In this document: positions 1 through 9,230 of the stretch, one piece after another | How positions within the stretch are numbered: the stretch's first letter is position 1 | Layout: each line of letters starts with the position of its first letter | From: an uncultured Actinomycetota bacterium | Lineage (GTDB): Bacteria; Actinomycetota; Actinomycetes; JAHEKZ01 | Reading direction: 5' to 3' | Assembly: GCA_963718235.1 (NCBI GenBank) | Contig: CAVQYR010000002.1 | Span: 832,001-896,000, forward strand | Length of the DNA stretch: 64,000 nucleotides | The notes under the pieces: model-generated | What the model was told of the DNA's origin: nothing | Seen by the model: the letters and a program-made list of their open reading frames with translations, nothing else | The model's database searches: none | Position numbers and translations under genes: made by a program

Positions 1-2
1 AG

Positions 3-422
3 CAGGAAGTCGTCGATGCGGTCGCCTCCTTCGCCCGTGAGACCTTCGCGGCGGCGTCGGTGACGGTCAACCACATGGACCACGTGCGCGGCCACTATCG
101 GTCAGTGGTCAACCTCGGTCACCTCGGACCGGGTGAGTCGCTGCACCCGGCCGACGAGACCCACGGGTTCGCCGACTACCCGTGGACCACGATGGCGCTG
201 CTCGCCGGCCGCGGCTACCGCTCCCACCTGTCGGACCCCGACTGCCCGGTGGAGTACCAGCAGCTGCTGCGCAGGCTGGGCAAGCCGGCGTGCCTCGGCG
301 CGCCCATCCGCAGACAGGGAACGGTGATGGGTGAGCTGTGGCTCAGCCGGGACGACCCGTTCGCCGACCGCGACGTCGACCTGCTGACGGCGCTCGGGGC
401 AGCGACCGCCCGCTACCTGTGA
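3..422 (+). CDS. GAF-domain protein (5' end outside the window)
   Basis: Frame open from the window edge; GAF-like C-terminus (CLGAPIRRQGTVMGELWLSRDDPFADRD). Confidence 0.65.
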   Translation, partial: QEVVDAVASFARETFAAASVTVNHMDHVRGHYRSVVNLGHLGPGESLHPADETHGFADYPWTTMALLAGRGYRSHLSDPDCPVEYQQLLRRLGKPACLGAPIRRQGTVMGELWLSRDDPFADRDVDLLTALGAATARYL

Positions 423-514
423 AAGGCCCTGCCGCGGGGGCGGTCAGGGACCTGCGGGGGCCGGCTTCGGTGTCCGGGTCTCGCCGGTGAGGTCGGGTCA
501 GTAGGCTCGTCCTC

Positions 515-1543
515 GTGACGCGATACGGACCCATGTTCGGCCCAGACATCACCTTCCTCGGCGTGCCGCGCTGCACCGTCGACGAGCCGGACACCTACGC
601 CGATGCCGACGTCGTCATCGTCGGGGCGCCCTTCGACGGCGGCACCTCGCACCGACCTGGGACGAGGTTCGGTCCGATGGCCATGCGGGGCACCGACTAC
701 CTCCCCCACGACGGCTCGCGCCCGCACATGGCGATGCGGGTCGATGCGCTCACCGACGACCTGACCGTCGTCGACGCCGGTGACCTCGAGGTGTACTCCG
801 GCGACGTCGTCCGCAGCTGCGCCACGATCGAGCAGGCCGTGAGCACGATCGCCGCAGCCGGCAAGGTGCCCCTCGTCCTGGGTGGTGACCACACGATCAC
901 CTGGCCCGACGTCACCGGTGTGGCGCATGCGTACGGTTTCGGCCGGGTCGCGGTCATCCACTTCGACGCCCACGCCGACACCGGCGACATCGAGTTCGGG
1001 TCGCTGTACGGACACGGTCAGCCGATGCGCAGGCTGATCGAGTCCGGGGCGGCGCGAGGGGACCGGTTCCTGCAGATCGGGTTGCGCGGCTACTGGCCCG
1101 GCCCGGAGACCCTCGACTGGATGGCCGACGAGGGCATGCGGTCGTTCCACATGAGCGAGATCGTCGAGCGCGGTCTCGACGCAGTGCTCGACGAGGCCTT
1201 CTCGATCGCGACCGACGACTGCGACGCGGTGTTCTTGTCCGTGGACATCGACGTCTGCGACCCCGGGCACGCGCCCGGAACCGGCACGCCAGAGCCCGGA
1301 GGGCTCACGGCCCGCCAGCTGCTCGACGCGGTGTCCCGGATCTGCTACGAGCTGCCGGTGGCGGGGATTGACGTGGTCGAGGTCTCCCCGCCGTACGACC
1401 ACGCCGAGATCACCGTGCTGCTCGGCAACCGGGTCGTGCTGGAGTCCTTGGCCGGGCTGGCCCGCCGGGCCCGCGACGCGGAGTCCGGGACCGTGTGGAA
1501 CCGGGCCACGCCCCTGCTGGACGGTCGCGGCACCGCGCGCTGA
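515..1543 (+). CDS. speB: Agmatinase (ureohydrolase family)
   Basis: GGDH, DAHAD and SVDIDVCDPGHAPGTGTP metal-binding motifs; TAGGCT -10 element 7 nt before the GTG. Confidence 0.9.
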   Translation: MTRYGPMFGPDITFLGVPRCTVDEPDTYADADVVIVGAPFDGGTSHRPGTRFGPMAMRGTDYLPHDGSRPHMAMRVDALTDDLTVVDAGDLEVYSGDVVRSCATIEQAVSTIAAAGKVPLVLGGDHTITWPDVTGVAHAYGFGRVAVIHFDAHADTGDIEFGSLYGHGQPMRRLIESGAARGDRFLQIGLRGYWPGPETLDWMADEGMRSFHMSEIVERGLDAVLDEAFSIATDDCDAVFLSVDIDVCDPGHAPGTGTPEPGGLTARQLLDAVSRICYELPVAGIDVVEVSPPYDHAEITVLLGNRVVLESLAGLARRARDAESGTVWNRATPLLDGRGTAR

Positions 1544-1584
1544 GGCCCCCGCGAGGCAGGTCGGCCCCGCGGCTGATCGCACTG

Positions 1585-1599
1585 ATTACTCTGCGTGAC
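1585..1599. promoter_or_regulatory. Candidate BldD-(c-di-GMP) binding box
   Basis: ATTACTCTGCGTGAC matches the consensus NTNACNC(A/T)GNGTNAN at every defined position; intergenic, upstream of a GGDEF-EAL operon. Confidence 0.65.
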
Positions 1600-1731
1600 G
1601 ATGCCTGACCCCTCGTGTCCACCCGTTCGGGCGACCAACTCCGGCCCCCGCGATGGCGACAACTAGTCCCAGGGGGGACCGAGCTACCGGCCGTTCCCAC
1701 CCGTTCGTCGCAACGCAAGGGAAGGGGAGCG

Positions 1732-1836
1732 ATGAAGAAGATCGACAAGGGGACCCTGGTGCGCGGCTCTGCCGCACTCGCAGGTCTCGTCGCCCTGGTC
1801 TCCACGGTCGGAGCCGGGACCAAGTGGATGCACTGA
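1732..1836 (+). CDS. Small signal-peptide-like precursor 1 (34 aa, MKKIDKGTLVRGSAALAGLVALVSTVGAGTKWMH)
   Basis: Purine-rich SD (GAAGGGGAG) before the ATG; paralogous to the next ORF. Confidence 0.8.
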   Translation: MKKIDKGTLVRGSAALAGLVALVSTVGAGTKWMH

Positions 1837-1848
1837 GAGGGGGATGAC

Positions 1849-1953
1849 ATGGAAGACATCAAGACCGCAGTCATCTCTCGGGTCTTGATCAGCGCCGGCA
1901 CGGTCGTGACTCTCGTCTCGGTCGTCGGTGCAGGTCGGAAATGGTGTCACTGA
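1849..1953 (+). CDS. Small signal-peptide-like precursor 2 (34 aa, MEDIKTAVISRVLISAGTVVTLVSVVGAGRKWCH)
   Basis: Translated by hand; SD GAGGGGG at 1837-1843; same length and C-terminal motif as precursor 1; overlaps the start of the next gene. Confidence 0.8.
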   Translation: MEDIKTAVISRVLISAGTVVTLVSVVGAGRKWCH

Positions 1954-4079
1954 CACCACGCCGTGGAGGGGTCGCCGGCTCGCCGGCGGCCCCTCGTCGT
2001 CATGACACGTTGCCGCTCGAGGTCTACATCGCCACGGTGTCGGTCATCGGTGTCTCCCTGCTCGCCCTGACCTGGTGGTTGGTCCCACCTGCCTTGATGT
2101 TCAGCGCCGCGACCTGGACCGATGCCACGTCGCCGGTGACCGTCGTCCTGCTGCTCGGCATCGCGCTCGTGCTCGGTGAGCTGCGCCCGATCCCGATCTC
2201 GCGCGGAGGCGACCTCACCGACTGGATCTCCATCTCGACCACGTTCGCTGTGGCCCTGATCGTCCTGGGGCCGGTCAGTGTCGCCGTCGTCGCGCAGGCC
2301 GCGGCCGTCCTGATCGACGACGTGCGGATGCGCCGCGCGTTCAGCAAGGTGGCGTTCAACGTCGGCCAGTACGTCATCACGATCATCGCGGCCCGGGTGG
2401 TCTACAGCCTGGTCTCGGGCACCCCCTTCGCGGCGCCGGCCACCACCTTCGAACCGACACCGGCAGCACTGCTCGGTGCGATCGCGGCGGGAGCCATGTT
2501 CGTGCTCGTCAACCACGGGCTCGTGTCGACCGTGGTCGCACTCCAGAGCCGGCAGCCGATCCTGGTGATCATGAGCGGTGACATCCGCTTCCAGTCCATG
2601 ACCAACGGGGTCCTGGCGGCGCTCGGTCCCATCGCCGCGGTCGCCGTGCAGCAGCAACCGCTCATGCTGCCCCTCCTCATCGCACCGGTCCTGGCGGTGT
2701 ACCGCAGCGCCGACCTGGCGATCCAGAAGGAGCGACAGGCGCACCACGACACCCTGACCGAGCTGCCGAACCGCGAGCTCTTCCGCGACAAGGCGGAGCG
2801 GGCGCTGGCCGAGTCCCAGCGGTCGGGCGTGCCGCTCGCGGTGATGATGATCGACCTGGACCACTTCAAGGAGATCAACGACACCCTGGGCCACCACATC
2901 GGCGACGACCTGATCCGAGAGGTCGCCACCAGGCTGGACCAGGCGCGTCCCATCGGCTCCACGGTGGCCCGCCTGGGCGGTGACGAGTTCGCCGTCCTGC
3001 TGCCCGACGTACCAGACCTCTCGGTGGCCGAGGAGGTCGCCACGTACATGCTCTCGGTGCTCGGCAAGTCGCTGTCCGCCGGCGGGGTGCGGCTCGTCGT
3101 CCAGGCCAGCATCGGGATCTCGCTGGCGCCCGACCACGGGCACGACGTGCACACCCTGATGAAGAACGCCGACATCGCGTTGTACGAGGCCAAGCGGGAG
3201 CGAGCCAGGTTCTGCGCCTACCAGCCCGACGAGGACGTCCACACGCCGCAGCGGCTCGCGATCCTGGCCGACCTGCGCACCGCCGTGGACGAGGGGCAGC
3301 TCTTCCTGGAGTTCCAGCCCAAGATCGACCTGGCGACCGACACCGTGATGGGTGCGGAGGCCCTGGTGCGGTGGAACCACCCCACGCGGGGCATCATCAG
3401 GCCGGACGACTTCATCCCCCTCGCCGAGAACACCGGGCTGATCACCCCGATCACCTGGTTCGTCATCGAGCGGTCCCTGCAGCAGTGCCGCTACTGGCGT
3501 GACCAGGGCCTGCCCCTCGGGGTGGCGGTGAACCTCTCGGTGCGCCACCTCAGTGACATGAGCCTGCCCGACCGGATCGGCGTCGCCCTCGAACGCTGGG
3601 GTGTGCCGGCGTCGGAGCTCACCGTCGAGGTCACCGAGAGCAGCATCATGACCGACCCCCAGCGCGCGATGGGGGTCATCCGACACCTGCGCCAGGTGGG
3701 GATCGGTGTCGCGATCGACGACTACGGGACCGGCCACGCGTCGTTGACGTACCTCAAGCGTCTCGAGATCGACGAGCTGAAGATCGACAAGTCGTTCATC
3801 ATGCACATGTCCGCCGAGGGCAACGACCCGATCATCGTCCGGTCGACCATCGAGCTGGGGCACAACCTCGGACTCCGGATCGTGGCCGAGGGCGTCGAGG
3901 ACGCCGACACGTTGGGCTGGCTGCGCGAGGTGGGCTGTGACGTCGCCCAGGGCTACCACATGGCCCGACCGATGGCCCCGGAGGCCGTCGAGGAGCTGGC
4001 CCGACGCCGGCTGGGCGAGCCGACGGAGACGCCCGTGCTGTCCAGCGGCGGACGACTGCGCCTGGTGGGAACGGCATGA
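1941..4079 (+). CDS. Membrane-sensor (MASE-like) diguanylate cyclase/phosphodiesterase, GGDEF-EAL
   Basis: ~250-aa multi-TM N-terminus (KVAFNVGQ); DLDHFKEINDTLGH, RLGGDEF, EALVRW, DDYGTG, KIDKSF, AEGVE and QGY intact. Confidence 0.93.
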   Translation: MVSLTPRRGGVAGSPAAPRRHDTLPLEVYIATVSVIGVSLLALTWWLVPPALMFSAATWTDATSPVTVVLLLGIALVLGELRPIPISRGGDLTDWISISTTFAVALIVLGPVSVAVVAQAAAVLIDDVRMRRAFSKVAFNVGQYVITIIAARVVYSLVSGTPFAAPATTFEPTPAALLGAIAAGAMFVLVNHGLVSTVVALQSRQPILVIMSGDIRFQSMTNGVLAALGPIAAVAVQQQPLMLPLLIAPVLAVYRSADLAIQKERQAHHDTLTELPNRELFRDKAERALAESQRSGVPLAVMMIDLDHFKEINDTLGHHIGDDLIREVATRLDQARPIGSTVARLGGDEFAVLLPDVPDLSVAEEVATYMLSVLGKSLSAGGVRLVVQASIGISLAPDHGHDVHTLMKNADIALYEAKRERARFCAYQPDEDVHTPQRLAILADLRTAVDEGQLFLEFQPKIDLATDTVMGAEALVRWNHPTRGIIRPDDFIPLAENTGLITPITWFVIERSLQQCRYWRDQGLPLGVAVNLSVRHLSDMSLPDRIGVALERWGVPASELTVEVTESSIMTDPQRAMGVIRHLRQVGIGVAIDDYGTGHASLTYLKRLEIDELKIDKSFIMHMSAEGNDPIIVRSTIELGHNLGLRIVAEGVEDADTLGWLREVGCDVAQGYHMARPMAPEAVEELARRRLGEPTETPVLSSGGRLRLVGTA

Positions 4080-4089
4080 GGGGGACGAC

Positions 4090-4737
4090 ATGCTGATCCT
4101 CGTGCTGGCGGTTGCGGCTCTCGTGTCGCCCTTCCTGTTCGGTGGCCGGCTGAGTCGGCTGGCGCAGATCCACCTCACTGCCGTGTGGATCCCGGTCGCC
4201 GCGCTGCTGGCTCAGATCGTGATCATCGAGGTCGTTCCGGACGCCTCACGCGTGGTCCTCGAGGCGGTGCACCTGGCCACCTACGTGGCGGCCGGGGTGT
4301 TCGTGGTGCTCAACCGTCGGGTTCCCGGACTCTTGATCATCGCGGTCGGCGCTGCCCTGAACGGGGTGACGATCGCCCTGAACGGCGGAACCCTTCCGGC
4401 CAGTGAGGCCGCCCAGCGACTGGCGGGCATCGAGTCGACCCCCGGTGAGTTCATCAACTCCGCCGCGCTGACCGACCCGGTGCTTCCGATGTTCGGCGAC
4501 ATCTTCGCCTGGCCGGCGCCGCTGCCGCTGGCGAACGTGTTCAGCCTGGGCGATGTGGTCATCGTGTTCGGAGCGTTCTACGGCGCGCAGAAGATCTGCG
4601 GGTCCCGCCTGGTCAAGCCCTGGCAGGAACGGGCAACCGACGAGGCTTCGGCCAGCGGCTCCGACAGCGTTCGCAGCGTGTCGCAGGAGAGCAGTGCGGC
4701 TCCTCACGCTCCAACGGAGTCGACTCCTCTAGTCTGA
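4090..4737 (+). CDS. DUF5317-family membrane protein
   Basis: GGRLSRL...ALNGGTLP...FGDIF...NVFSLGD pattern; SD GAGGGGG; 10 nt after the GGDEF-EAL stop. Confidence 0.8.
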   Translation: MLILVLAVAALVSPFLFGGRLSRLAQIHLTAVWIPVAALLAQIVIIEVVPDASRVVLEAVHLATYVAAGVFVVLNRRVPGLLIIAVGAALNGVTIALNGGTLPASEAAQRLAGIESTPGEFINSAALTDPVLPMFGDIFAWPAPLPLANVFSLGDVVIVFGAFYGAQKICGSRLVKPWQERATDEASASGSDSVRSVSQESSAAPHAPTESTPLV

Positions 4738-4803
4738 CCGGATCGTTGGTCGTCACCTGGGCGGCGGCCAGGCTGCCGGCGTCCCGAAAGGACCCTCAAC
4801 TCC

Positions 4804-6024
4804 ATGCGAATCCTGCTCATCGGAGCCGGCGGCGTCGGCTCGGCCGTGGTTCCGATCGCGGCCCGGCGGTCGTTCTTCGAGACGATGGTGGTCGCCGACT
4901 ACGACCGCGCGCGAGCCGATCGGGCCGTGGCGCAGGTCGGGGACCCGCGGTTCGTGGCCGACCAGGTGGACGCGTCGAACGCCGAGTCCGTGGCGGACCT
5001 CGTCCGTTCGCACCGGATCACCCATGTGCTGAACGCGGTCGACCCGCGCTTCGTGCTGCCGATCTTCAACGGCGCACTCGCCGGAGGTTCCGACTACCTC
5101 GACCTGGCCATGTCGCTCTCCTTCCCGCACGCCGACGACCCCTACCACCAGACGGGGGTGAAGCTGGGTGACGAACAGTTCGCCGCCGCCAAGGAGTGGG
5201 AGCAGCACGGCCGCCTCGCGCTCGTCGGCATCGGCGTCGAGCCCGGGCTGTCCGACGTCTTCGCCCGATACGCGGCCGACGAGCTGTTCAGCGAGATCGA
5301 CGAGGCAGGGGTGCGTGACGGCTCCAATCTCGAGGTCGACGGGTACACGTTCGCGCCGTCCTTCTCGATCTGGACGACGATCGAGGAGTGCCTGAACCCA
5401 CCGGTGATCTGGGAGAAGGGCAGGGGATGGTTCACCACCGCCCCCTTCTCCGAGCCGGAGGTGTTCGACTTCCCCGACGGGATCGGACCGGTGGAGTGCG
5501 TGAACGTCGAGCACGAGGAGGTTCTGCTCATCCCACGATGGGTCGACTGCAAGCGGGCGACCTTCAAGTACGGGCTGGGCGAGGACTTCATCAACGTGCT
5601 GCAGGTGCTGCACAAGCTCGGGCTGGACCGCACCCAACCGCTGGCCGTCGGGTCGGTGGAGGTGAGCCCCCGTGACGTGGTGGCTGCCCTCCTGCCCGAC
5701 CCGGCCTCGCTCGGCGACCGGATGAGAGGCAAGACGTGTGCCGGCACGTGGGTCACCGGAACGGGCAAGGACGGGCGGCCGCGCCAGGTGTACCTGTACC
5801 ACGTCGTCGACAACGAGTGGTCGATGCGGGAGTACGGGTCGCAGGCCGTGGTGTGGCAGACAGCAGTGAACCCGGTGATCGCTCTGGAGCTGTTGTCCAA
5901 CGGGTCATGGTCGGGGGCCGGGGTCCTCGGACCGGAGGCCTTCCCGCCCGTCCCGTTCCTGGACGCCCTGGTCGACTACGGCTCACCGTGGGCGATCCGC
6001 GAGGAGACCCCGGCCGCCGAGTAG
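4804..6024 (+). CDS. Saccharopine dehydrogenase / carboxy(nor)spermidine dehydrogenase family oxidoreductase
   Basis: N-terminal GAGGVG Rossmann motif; GIGVEPGLSDVF and HEEV motifs. Confidence 0.85.
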   Translation: MRILLIGAGGVGSAVVPIAARRSFFETMVVADYDRARADRAVAQVGDPRFVADQVDASNAESVADLVRSHRITHVLNAVDPRFVLPIFNGALAGGSDYLDLAMSLSFPHADDPYHQTGVKLGDEQFAAAKEWEQHGRLALVGIGVEPGLSDVFARYAADELFSEIDEAGVRDGSNLEVDGYTFAPSFSIWTTIEECLNPPVIWEKGRGWFTTAPFSEPEVFDFPDGIGPVECVNVEHEEVLLIPRWVDCKRATFKYGLGEDFINVLQVLHKLGLDRTQPLAVGSVEVSPRDVVAALLPDPASLGDRMRGKTCAGTWVTGTGKDGRPRQVYLYHVVDNEWSMREYGSQAVVWQTAVNPVIALELLSNGSWSGAGVLGPEAFPPVPFLDALVDYGSPWAIREETPAAE

Positions 6025-6035
6025 CCGCGCGGCGG

Positions 6036-7394
6036 TCAGCTGCGGGGAGCCGAGCCCTGGTCAGAGAGCAGGTTGTCCAGGACGGGGCCGAGCACCGAGG
6101 CGATGGCCCGCGCCTTGCGCACCTGCTGGCGGGTCCAGGCCGTCTCCTCGGAGTGCGAGCACTCCAGCAGCCCGACTGCGCGGCCCGCGCTGGCCGCGGG
6201 CACCATCATCAGACTGCGCCAGCCGTGGGTGCCCATCCAGGCGATCTCGGCCGGGTCGGCCTCAGGGGCGCTCGCCAGGACCTGCGCCATCTGCATGCTC
6301 GAGAGCACGGCTCGGCTCGTGGCGTAGTCGGCGAGGGGGTAGCGGACCCCTTCGGGCTTCCATCGACCCGGTTCGACCGCCTCGAGCCACTGGCCGGTCG
6401 GGTCGACGAACGACAGGTCCGCCTGGTCGCAGCCGAGCACGTCGGCGACCATGACCATGAGTCGGGCGAGGGTGTCCAGGTCGGCGGCGTCGGACAGCCG
6501 GCCGATGAGGTGCTCCAGCGTGGGCGTGCCGTTGACCTCGGAACCGCGACCACCCACGGCCATGGCCCGTGCGAACGAGGACTCGCACGTGAGCCGCGCC
6601 GCCTCGCTCGCCTCCTCGAACTGCGCGACCGGCATGCCGATCACCCAGCCCTGCGCCTCGGCGACGTCCAGCTCGGCCAGGACGTAGAGGTCCTCCAGGC
6701 TCTCGACGCCCTCGGCGCACACCGCGGCGCCCACCTGGGCCGCGTAGCGCACGATCGCCTCGACCATGGCGGCCTTTCCGGGCTCGGACTCGACCCCGGT
6801 GACCAGCGAGCGGTCGAGCTTGAGCAGGTCGGGCGAGAGCGCCATGACGCGCTGGAGCCCCGCGTACCCCTCGCCGACGTCGTCGACGGCGATCCGGGCA
6901 CCGCGCCCGCGAAGGGCCTCCAGCACGAGGTGGACCCGGTCGGGGTCTTCGACCGCCTCAGTCTCGGTGATCTCGAACTGCAGCCCGGTGAGGTCGAACG
7001 GCAAGACGTTCTGCAACTCGTTGGAGCCGAGGACCGAGGGGCTGACGTTGACCGACAGGAGCACGCCGTCGGGTCGGTTCGCGCCGAGCTGGAGTGCTCG
7101 GTCGACGGCTCGCGCCTCGAGCATGGGTCCGAGCCCGACGCTGTGCGCCATGGTGAACCAACGGTCAGGGGTGAGCGAGGGGCCGCCATGGGTGAACCGG
7201 GCCAGCGCCTCGTAGGACAGGACCCGCCCGGTCGCCAGGCCGAGGATGGGTTGGACGACGATGCTCGGCGAACCGGCGTGCAGGGCCGTGACGACCAGCG
7301 AACGCACCTCGTCGCTGCCCAGGTCGACCGCCGGGTTCGAAGGGGGAGGTGTGGGCAGCGAGGAGCCGGACGTGCTCGTCGTGGTCATCGACAT
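6036..7394 (-). CDS. EAL-GAF c-di-GMP phosphodiesterase
   Basis: YEALARF, SVNVSP, FEITE, VDDVGEGY, KLDRS, AEGVE and QGW motifs; C-terminal GAF-like domain; start chosen by SD (GAGGA). Confidence 0.85.
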   Translation of the reverse strand: MSMTTTSTSGSSLPTPPPSNPAVDLGSDEVRSLVVTALHAGSPSIVVQPILGLATGRVLSYEALARFTHGGPSLTPDRWFTMAHSVGLGPMLEARAVDRALQLGANRPDGVLLSVNVSPSVLGSNELQNVLPFDLTGLQFEITETEAVEDPDRVHLVLEALRGRGARIAVDDVGEGYAGLQRVMALSPDLLKLDRSLVTGVESEPGKAAMVEAIVRYAAQVGAAVCAEGVESLEDLYVLAELDVAEAQGWVIGMPVAQFEEASEAARLTCESSFARAMAVGGRGSEVNGTPTLEHLIGRLSDAADLDTLARLMVMVADVLGCDQADLSFVDPTGQWLEAVEPGRWKPEGVRYPLADYATSRAVLSSMQMAQVLASAPEADPAEIAWMGTHGWRSLMMVPAASAGRAVGLLECSHSEETAWTRQQVRKARAIASVLGPVLDNLLSDQGSAPRS

Positions 7395-7676
7395 CCGCTC
7401 GTCCTCACCCCTCACTGCGCTGGTCTCTGCTCACGCTCTGCCCGGCCCGTGTGCAGCGCCGAGCGCTGACCCGGTCCGGATGCGGAGGTGAGGGCCCCGC
7501 GGGACCCTCATGGGCCTTGGAGTCGGCAGGTGCACGGCCGCGATGTAGCGCCCGACGGGGGAGTGTGCCAGAGGTTACGCCGATCGGGTGAGGCCCGCAC
7601 GACCCTGGACAGGAGCGGTGCCGGGCCCTACCGTGGCGTCGCCCTGCGCCGGACGGCGCGGCGAACGGAGGCAGTG

Positions 7677-9230
7677 ATGGCCACCCAGTCCGAGGCGCCG
7701 ACCAGCGGCGGAGCCGGCGAGAAGGGGCTCAAGAGCGGGGCGATCGGGTTCGTCTCCGGGGTCGTGATCGGGGTGGCGTCGACCGCTCCGGGCTACAGCC
7801 TGGCGGCCGTGCTGGGCCTGGTCGTCTTCGCGGTGGGGTTCCAGGCGCCGGCGATCATGCTCCTGGCGTTCGTGCCCATGCTGTTCATCGCGGCGTCCTA
7901 CTACTACCTGAACCGGGCCGACCCCGACTGCGGAACGACCTTCGCCTGGGTCACCCGGGCCATGGGGCCGTACTGGGGCTGGATGGGTGGCTGGGGGATC
8001 ATCGTCGCCGACATCATCGTCATGGCGAACCTGGCCGAAGTCGCCTCGATCTACACGTTCGACCTGTTCGGCATCGACAGCGAGAGCAAGTGGCTCGTCG
8101 TCGGGCTCGGCGTGGTCTGGATCGCCGTGATGACCTGGATCACCTGGCGCGGCATCGAGCTCTCAGCGCGCACCCAGCTCTTCCTGCTGGGGGCCGAGAT
8201 CGCTGCGCTGGTCCTCTTCGCCGCTGTCGCCTTGTTCCGGGTCTACTTCGGTGACGTCGCCGGGTCGGTCGATCCGTCCTTGTCGTGGCTGAACCCGTTC
8301 GCGATCGAGGGCACCGATGGCCAGAGCGCCCTTCAGGCGATGACGGCTGGGCTGCTGCTGGCCCTGTTCATCTACTGGGGCTGGGACTCCACGGTAACCG
8401 TCAACGAGGAGACCGAGGACTCCGCGGAGGCCCCGGGGCGGGCCGCGATCTGGTCGACCATCATCCTCCTCGGGATCTACGTGATCGTCTCCGTCGCCGC
8501 GATCGCCTATGCGGGACCGGCGTTCCTCGCCCTGGAGGAGAACCAGGGCGACGCCCTGGGGGTGCTGGCCGCCGACGTCTTGGGTCCGCTCAGCTGGGTG
8601 CTGATCATCGCGGTGCTCACCAGTGCGGCCGCTTCTACCCAGACCACGATCCTGCCGACGGCCCGCACGATGCTCTCGATGGGGGCCAAGGGAGCGGTGC
8701 CCAAGTACTGGGCGAGGATCCACCCGCGCTACCTGACGCCCGGACCAGCGACGCTGTGGATGGGTGCCCTGAGCATCATCTGGTACGTCGGCTTGAAGAT
8801 GGTCTCGGAGAACATCCTCTACGACGCAATCGCGGCCCTCGGCCTGATGATCGCTTTCTACTACGGCCTGACCGGGTACGCCGCGGTCATCTACTACCGC
8901 CGTCACCTGTTCGACAGCGTCAAGGCGTTCGTCATGGTCGGGGTCGCGCCGCTGGTCGGGGCGCTGATCCTCACCTGGGCGCTCGTCCGGTCGGCGATCG
9001 ACCTGGCCGACCCGGCCAACTCCGAGTCCGGGACCTCGTGGTTCGGCTACGGTCCGCCGCTGGTCATCGCGGTGGGCTTCATGGTGCTCGGGCTGATCTT
9101 GATGATCGTCATGCGGGTCACGAGCCCGGAGTTCTTCCGGCGCAAGCCCGAGGTCGTGCCCGAGGAGATCGGTCTGTCGGTGTCGAGCCGGGCCGGCGCC
9201 ACCGCTGACCGCAAGGGAGAGGAGTCCTGA
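7677..9230 (+). CDS. APC-family amino acid/polyamine permease
   Basis: GVASTAPGYSLA and FIYWGWD motifs; about 12 TM segments; SD GGAGG. Confidence 0.9.
   Translation: MATQSEAPTSGGAGEKGLKSGAIGFVSGVVIGVASTAPGYSLAAVLGLVVFAVGFQAPAIMLLAFVPMLFIAASYYYLNRADPDCGTTFAWVTRAMGPYWGWMGGWGIIVADIIVMANLAEVASIYTFDLFGIDSESKWLVVGLGVVWIAVMTWITWRGIELSARTQLFLLGAEIAALVLFAAVALFRVYFGDVAGSVDPSLSWLNPFAIEGTDGQSALQAMTAGLLLALFIYWGWDSTVTVNEETEDSAEAPGRAAIWSTIILLGIYVIVSVAAIAYAGPAFLALEENQGDALGVLAADVLGPLSWVLIIAVLTSAAASTQTTILPTARTMLSMGAKGAVPKYWARIHPRYLTPGPATLWMGALSIIWYVGLKMVSENILYDAIAALGLMIAFYYGLTGYAAVIYYRRHLFDSVKAFVMVGVAPLVGALILTWALVRSAIDLADPANSESGTSWFGYGPPLVIAVGFMVLGLILMIVMRVTSPEFFRRKPEVVPEEIGLSVSSRAGATADRKGEES

Follow-up and report, generated by a model that had tools for sequence, protein, structure and literature searches.

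DUF5317, co-encoded mini-peptides and a MASE9-type membrane sensor form one gene module in Actinomycetota

Our analysis of a 64,000-nucleotide stretch of DNA from an uncultured Actinomycetota bacterium (the window) shows that a gene for a DUF5317 membrane protein, unannotated mini-peptide genes and a gene for a sensor with a MASE9-type membrane domain form one module, as the window and 80 related loci together show. The link between DUF5317 and the adjacent peptides is strongly supported, and DUF5317 probably handles these co-encoded peptides. Our best explanation, which we hold with slightly less than even confidence, is that DUF5317 is the membrane partner of the mini-peptides, likely trimming them near a GAG motif, and that it belongs to the input side of a MASE9-type sensor that here controls c-di-GMP. 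DUF5317 is a family without assigned function, for which our literature search (DUF5317, PF17248 or IPR035168) found no paper.

In the window, whose DNA has a high GC content (about 0.69), the module is laid out as a tight string on the plus strand. The first two genes encode mini-peptides of 34 residues each: pep1 (1732-1836), whose product ends in VGAGTKWMH and which is supported by an ATG start, a purine-rich Shine-Dalgarno-like stretch upstream and the related loci, and, after a gap of 12 nt, pep2 (1849-1953), whose product ends in VGAGRKWCH and whose own end overlaps the start of the sensor ORF. These two real ORFs are the adjacent precursors with VGAG of which the preliminary description had spoken. 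The sensor gene (1941-4079) encodes 712 residues, and 10 nt past its stop codon begins the DUF5317 gene (4090-4737, 215 residues; protein P0001), the last gene of the string and, according to a genome search, the only DUF5317 gene of this genome. The cassette is flanked by an arginase-family gene (515-1543, plus strand) and a saccharopine-dehydrogenase-family gene (4804-6024, plus strand). A second c-di-GMP gene, with EAL and GAF domains (6036-7415, minus strand), lies two genes downstream, and 12 close relatives (L031-L040, L042 and L058) likewise show an EAL match on the minus strand, about +2.5 to +3.8 kb away from DUF5317.

An Rfam search of window positions 1-8000 gave no match at E<=1, and so no riboswitch or leader family. 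In positions 1400-5000, scans for promoters and terminators turned up nothing promoter-like and a single terminator-like site, which lies within the DUF5317 gene, a yield that shuffled sequences match. One metatranscriptome run held a small share of the window's words. A 258-nt contig from a sediment metatranscriptome covers positions 1588-1841 with one mismatch, taking in the leader and the whole of pep1 and ending 5 nt past its stop codon, and a 159-nt RNA-library contig covers positions 3899-4051; the rest derive from other organisms and match the conserved GGDEF part at 90-95%. These contigs are weak evidence of transcription because DNA carry-over is possible, and the 258-nt contig hints at a short pep1 transcript with the same proviso and the further one that contigs cannot show transcript ends.

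The sensor combines an N-terminal multi-helix membrane domain with GGDEF and EAL domains (Pfam, E = 1.1e-46 and 9.8e-73, respectively). Against the Pfam MASE9 model (PF20972) the window's sensor reaches 15.4 bits, below the cut-off of 24.3. Neighbouring sensors of 63 related loci have an N-terminal domain homologous to its own, and of the 64 such domains aligned, 51 match MASE9 at E<=0.01, which suggests that the membrane domain belongs to MASE9 or lies close to it. MASE9 was defined in a preprint on HD-GYP proteins, which gives HD-GYP and GGDEF-EAL as its outputs and proposes that its ligand binds within the membrane (10.1101/2021.11.05.467447). DUF5317 does not occur in the available part of the text of that preprint (10.1101/2021.11.05.467447).

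Both mini-peptides have a basic N-terminus and one hydrophobic helix, and the pep2 type, with GAG-K/R-KW, is kept in close relatives. With pooled pN/pS values of 0.33 for pep1 (7 sequences) and 0.23 for pep2 (6 sequences), the mini-peptides are under purifying selection. In the related loci the peptides have the same build of basic N-terminus and single hydrophobic helix, are 28-43 residues long, are encoded by one to three genes per locus and end in GA(G/P/S)-x-K-aromatic followed by 0-5 residues; three genes are found, for example, at L043:2699-3255. The most conserved part of the peptides is the C-terminal GAGxK-aromatic segment (alignment A4), where the search pattern itself accounts for part of the invariance of K and W. 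In 67 peptides the residue that follows GA(G/P) is T, R, V, K, L, S, W, Y, F, Q, M or H, and in none of the 67 is it Cys, so that VGAG, which the preliminary description had called lipobox-like, falls short of a lipobox in the residue that defines one. A search of NCBIfam returned nothing for the mini-peptides and only noise for the DUF5317 protein.

Evidence for a common function comes from the related loci, which number 80, with one genome per species, all but one being labelled Actinomycetota or unclassified. Searching them by tblastn with three parts of the window's sensor, we found that a sensor gene adjoins DUF5317 in 74 of the 80, co-directional in 67 and divergent in 7. Six loci have too little upstream DNA for the peptides to be assessed, and mini-peptide genes are present in all of the remaining 74. 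The pattern [AGS][AGP]x[KR]W plus 0-3 residues accounts for 63 loci (87 ORFs, almost all of which have an ATG and a stretch like a Shine-Dalgarno sequence); five more carry K-F variants, four sensor-less loci (L088, L089, L104 and L109) carry divergent peptides with K-F or K-V, and two (L075 and L100) carry peptides with tails of 4-5 residues. These last 11 loci rest on relaxed patterns or on reading by eye, and the relaxed pattern gives one spurious match in the whole 64-kb window. In two loci (L061 and L065) no sensor gene intervenes, and a peptide gene lies immediately before DUF5317.

In two other loci the MASE9-type domain is fused to HisKA-HATPase instead of GGDEF-EAL (L075:1256-2809 and L100:4051-5919, both on the minus strand; MASE9 scores of 28.9 and 29.2 bits). 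This shows that the output domain of the sensor can change while the MASE9-like membrane domain stays. DUF5317 is therefore tied to the membrane domain and not to the output, and the module can feed a two-component kinase. Altogether, the linkage shows that DUF5317, the peptide and the MASE9-type domain work together. Other arrangements were also seen: in three sensor-less loci (L089, L104 and L109; 3.9-5.7 kb) LuxR-type (GerE) regulators lie upstream of the divergent peptide-DUF5317 pair, preceded in L104 by a gene for an AAA_16/STAND-like ATPase, and at L092:1502-4600 two tandem sensor genes lie upstream of DUF5317.

In a phylum-wide sample, DUF5317 was found in 77 of 201 genomes, and Pfam MASE9 within 5 kb of 39 of the 114 DUF5317 matches, tallies that take in seven unpublished genomes from which 5 of the 39 pairs come. 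The proportion of 39 in 114 is a lower bound, since the Pfam MASE9 model misses the window's own sensor. Among 14 control genomes, both families match in two only, those of Thermus thermophilus and Thermotoga maritima.

The protein itself matches Pfam DUF5317 (PF17248) over residues 27-164 (E = 1.4e-22, 80.8 bits, cut-off 25). We aligned 27 of its close relatives (A1) and, more broadly, 118 representatives of 50%-identity clusters that are 34-55% identical to it (A3), drawn from 117 of the best 150 among 3352 matches at E<=0.001, selected for a length of 170-300 residues; PF17248 is matched by all 118. In A3, residue D137 is Asp in 118 of 118 sequences and D155 in all 117 that have a residue there, one being truncated. 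N75, G87, N91, N98, G100, P103, G136 and P142 are likewise invariant, and Q42, H61 (115 of 118), Y65, N123, S124, N149, S152, and G154 nearly so. Five polar positions are thus invariant and seven near-invariant, with no invariant Lys or Arg anywhere in DUF5317, and polar-residue conservation of this kind looks enzyme-like.

Two stretches of the gene, both on the plus strand, stand out. The first is the helix-4 motif G87..N91..N98-G-G (GAALNGVTIALNGG, residues 87-100, positions 4348-4389), in which G87, N91, N98 and G100 are the same in all 118 relatives, and the second is the block from F135 to G161 (FGDIFAWPAPLPLANVFSLGDVVIVFG, residues 135-161, positions 4492-4572), which contains D137 (GAC, 4498-4500) and D155 (GAT, 4552-4554). 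The separation of 18 residues between these two Asp is kept in 115 of 117 DUF5317 relatives. The two strings that the preliminary description had quoted are both seen in the translation of 4090-4737, and the pair of Asp 18 residues apart to which it had drawn attention is no chance feature, being conserved in the relatives. On the other hand, the Trp of the WP that it had quoted (W141) is not conserved, being W in only 9 of the 118.

Other identities for the protein did not hold. A Ser-His-Asp type site (S152 or S124, with H61) was dropped because H61 is replaced in 3 of 118 sequences, and a likeness to TraQ, OPT or DUF2269 was dropped as noise, each appearing in 2-4 of the 118 members. GxGD is the motif of the prepilin peptidase and presenilin type intramembrane aspartyl peptidases; the motifs of DUF5317, L-G-D137 and S152-x-G-D155, do not match it, and the Pfam families of GxGD-type peptidases are absent from the weak matches of the 118 members.

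An AlphaFold2 model built on A1 (mean pLDDT 81.1) predicts five transmembrane helices (2-16, 33-48, 54-74, 81-97 and 153-170), a loop of 55 residues with short strands and helices (98-152) and a disordered tail. The numbers of K+R per sequence in A3 put loop 17-32 (3.36), loop 75-80 (1.47) and the tail (3.17) inside, and loop 49-53 (0.10) and the acidic loop 98-152 outside. Because of these counts and the positive-inside rule, D137, D155, N98, N149 and S152 are predicted to lie on the outer face of the membrane, so that both Asp would be exposed there, with the tail in the cytoplasm.

In our searches the DUF5317 model resembled neither a protease nor anything else among the solved folds. With the whole model, Foldseek listed neither LspA nor any protease (best E 5.7), and the wide VIA search peaked at a Z of 6.9 with a match limited to the helical hairpin 28-78, again with no LspA listed; a second fold comparison returned only 10 chains, LspA not among them. 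With the fragment 76-178, predicted separately from an alignment of 59 sequences (A5, pLDDT 90.6), Foldseek found nothing and VIA gave a best Z of 4.5, none reaching 5 and no LspA listed. The LspA fold that the preliminary description had expected was hence not recovered from either the whole model or the fragment, although absence from such a list excludes no fold. A features search of the ESM Atlas, from which DUF5317 clusters were excluded, gave no usable match, and the Atlas has no model of P0001. We also predicted a complex of DUF5317 residues 1-178 (A3) with peptide 1 (A4), which scored 0.19 against a mark of 0.32 and is evidence neither way.

The preliminary description had taken DUF5317 for a divergent LspA-fold peptidase. 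We consider it very improbable that the two are truly homologous at a great distance, with DUF5317 having the fold of LspA (peptidase A8) and cleaving the peptides at a lipobox that lacks Cys. P0001 has no match to Pfam A8 (PF01252) at E<=1, and profiles of A1 and A3 found no LspA chain among PDB sequences at E<=10. As a positive control, the profile of 29 actinobacterial LspA domains (A2) found 6ryo, 9emz and 5dir at E values of 1e-35 to 3e-38, the solved LspA chains found being 5dir, 6fms, 6ryo, 6ryp and 9emz.

A short and consistent likeness to LspA does exist. Comparison by hhalign of A1 with A2 gave 16 columns with a probability of 5.6%, and that of A3 with A2 gave 26 columns with a probability of 11.1% and a score of 26.3, setting residues 139-167 on LspA columns 106-131 and D155 on the second invariant Asp of LspA. 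None of 150 column-shuffled LspA alignments reached this score (mean 14.0, maximum 24.2), but the reversed LspA alignment came to 22.7. Applied without filters to 298 family proteins, the A2 HMM gave at least 5 bits for 38 of them and for none of the 298 reversed sequences, and 21 of its 25 best matches placed LspA positions 108-131 onto DUF5317 residues of about 145-168. Pfam A8 itself appeared weakly in 2 of the 118 members (best E 0.029), no more commonly than several unrelated families. Furthermore, the catalytic Asp of LspA face outward, as those of DUF5317 are predicted to do.

All this likeness, however, is confined to some 20-26 residues and to 8.6 bits at the most. The invariants of A2 are D9, K13, N40, G42, F45, N92 and R96; D9, K13, N40, G42, F45 and R96 have no aligned counterpart in DUF5317, which has no invariant Lys or Arg to offer, and its G87-N91 pair resembles G..N but is not aligned to G88-N92 of LspA. 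DUF5317 has five helices with a large outer loop between helices 4 and 5, whereas the long loop of LspA follows helix 1. No peptide has Cys at +1, and the genome already has its own canonical LspA gene on another contig (126.7 bits). Contrary to the figure of about 18-19 residues given for LspA in the preliminary description, the spacing of its two Asp in the 29 actinobacterial sequences is 14 in 27, 16 in one and 19 in one; a spacing of 18 is therefore not diagnostic of LspA and carries no evidential weight. As far as sequences can tell, DUF5317 and LspA truly have in common the block P..VF(S/N)x(G/A)DxxIxxG, where the last helix starts, and nothing else. DUF5317 has a local LspA-like motif; homology and a common fold with LspA are not supported, and the label 'LspA-like peptidase', being unsupported, should stay out of annotation.

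Domain fusions of DUF5317 bear on its role as well. Among long relatives, an efflux-type transporter domain (MFS_1 or MFS_3) follows DUF5317 in 25 of 33, and in 7 of 10 in another set; in the fusions found among proteins P0271-P0298, DUF5317 is N-terminal. P0129, P0130, P0134 and P0283, together with the genes of L061 and L065, have long tails without a Pfam domain, and two long relatives are GGDEF-EAL-DUF5317 read-throughs on cut contigs. By analogy, the MFS fusions recall peptidase-transporter fusions. They would also suit a DUF5317 related to transport, an accessory or gate of an export route, with the peptides as secreted signals that signal peptidase I cuts and DUF5317 leaves chemically untouched. 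Indeed, with their GAG end of small residues the peptides resemble signal peptides, and GAG also satisfies the preference of ordinary signal peptidase I for small residues, so that another enzyme could do any cutting. We nevertheless find a transport role improbable: there is no transporter in the string of this window or in most related loci, a peptide inserted with its N-terminus in and its C-terminus out exposes its tail without an exporter, and the polar invariants cluster in the outer half of the protein with no full path across the membrane.

To return to our preferred explanation, DUF5317 and the mini-peptides would constitute the input side of a MASE9-type membrane sensor whose c-di-GMP output passes through GGDEF-EAL. 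Once inserted, the peptides would have the N-terminus inside and the C-terminus outside, and GAG-x-K-(W/F) would thus lie at the outer membrane surface, beside a polar pocket of DUF5317 for which we propose D137, D155, N91, N98, N149, S152, H61 and Q42, H61 being short of full invariance (115/118). From this topology we infer that the GAGxK-aromatic end of the peptide meets the Asp pocket on the outer face, and most likely DUF5317 acts on this outward end or binds it, as input to the sensor. Putative proteolysis by DUF5317 is plausible. It would most likely trim the peptide at or near GAG, with the two Gly-Asp residues as an aspartyl dyad, and either the cut or uncut helix or a freed tail of 3-8 residues would set the state of the sensor's membrane domain. 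Enzyme-like conservation, the local LspA-like motif and the transporter fusions are what suggest cutting. As for the AgrB-like role that the preliminary description had assigned to DUF5317, it is a reasonable hypothesis because every related locus that could be assessed pairs the gene with small peptide genes (74 of 74); the two Asp are invariant and predicted to be on the outer face.

The same linkage data also serve a reading without catalysis, in which DUF5317 and an uncut peptide would belong to the MASE9 sensor complex as stable subunits or would modulate it, and the Asp/Asn pocket would bind the Lys of the peptide, the head group of a lipid or an ion. The conserved Lys and aromatic residue are at the usual position of a membrane-interface anchor, and the tail past the proposed cut would count only 3-8 residues; both features fit an uncut structural peptide equally well. 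An invariant Lys-aromatic pair at the outer end of the peptide suits such an anchor or a salt bridge to Asp, only 0-5 residues follow the aromatic one, and the searches described above gave no protease-like fold. However, 12 invariant or near-invariant polar residues in a membrane core of 170 residues are more than a scaffold usually has, and a pure sensor subunit would not readily account for recurrent MFS fusions. Taken by itself, a non-catalytic complex is rather unlikely in our estimation, if nearly as likely as the cutting reading.

Cutting by DUF5317 has a bolder version, which we regard as unlikely to a somewhat greater degree: DUF5317 would found a new family of outward-facing membrane aspartyl peptidases, with a fold unlike the solved ones, cutting at GAG|x-K-(W/F), and the product would be the long-sought in-membrane ligand of MASE9. 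If true, this would mean that peptides control an entry into c-di-GMP (and kinase) signalling, in Actinomycetota and, to go by the control genomes, also in Thermus and Thermotoga. MASE9 is a widespread membrane sensor domain without known signal, and DUF5317 is without known function; the module turns these two unknowns into a testable three-part system, consisting of a peptide, a protein that is a candidate for processing or binding it and offers D137 and D155 as mutational targets, and a c-di-GMP read-out.

How does this module compare with known systems? The window's sensor agrees with the MASE9 preprint in its MASE9-type domain and in its GGDEF-EAL output, which is among those recorded there, and differs in its peptide-DUF5317 partnership, of which the available part of the preprint has none (10.1101/2021.11.05.467447). 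By analogy, DUF5317 may work somewhat like AgrB or LspA while being a member of neither family. With LspA it shares the character of a small polytopic membrane protein with two invariant Asp, the second at the predicted outer start of the last helix, and its presumed substrate is likewise a short hydrophobic helix followed by small residues. LspA, however, folds into four helices with an outer sheet domain, whereas five helices and a differently placed outer domain are predicted for DUF5317, which is also without a family-level sequence match, a listed fold match or the other invariants of LspA; moreover, LspA substrates have a lipobox with Cys at +1, a residue that the DUF5317-linked peptides never have there. 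In AgrB-AgrD-AgrC, the staphylococcal quorum-sensing system, a multi-helix membrane sensor is joined by a small precursor peptide and by a polytopic membrane protein encoded with that peptide; AgrB is a cysteine peptidase that makes a thiolactone ring. The gene logic of peptide, DUF5317 and sensor is the same, but the DUF5317 module has no conserved Cys, it acts through c-di-GMP turnover or through a different kinase, and its processing step is hypothetical. Finally, MgrB is a small membrane protein that modulates the sensor PhoQ. Like it, the mini-peptides are single-pass peptides of about 30 residues encoded with a sensor, on which they presumably act in the membrane; unlike it, they carry a strict C-terminal motif and are always accompanied by DUF5317 as a third conserved protein.
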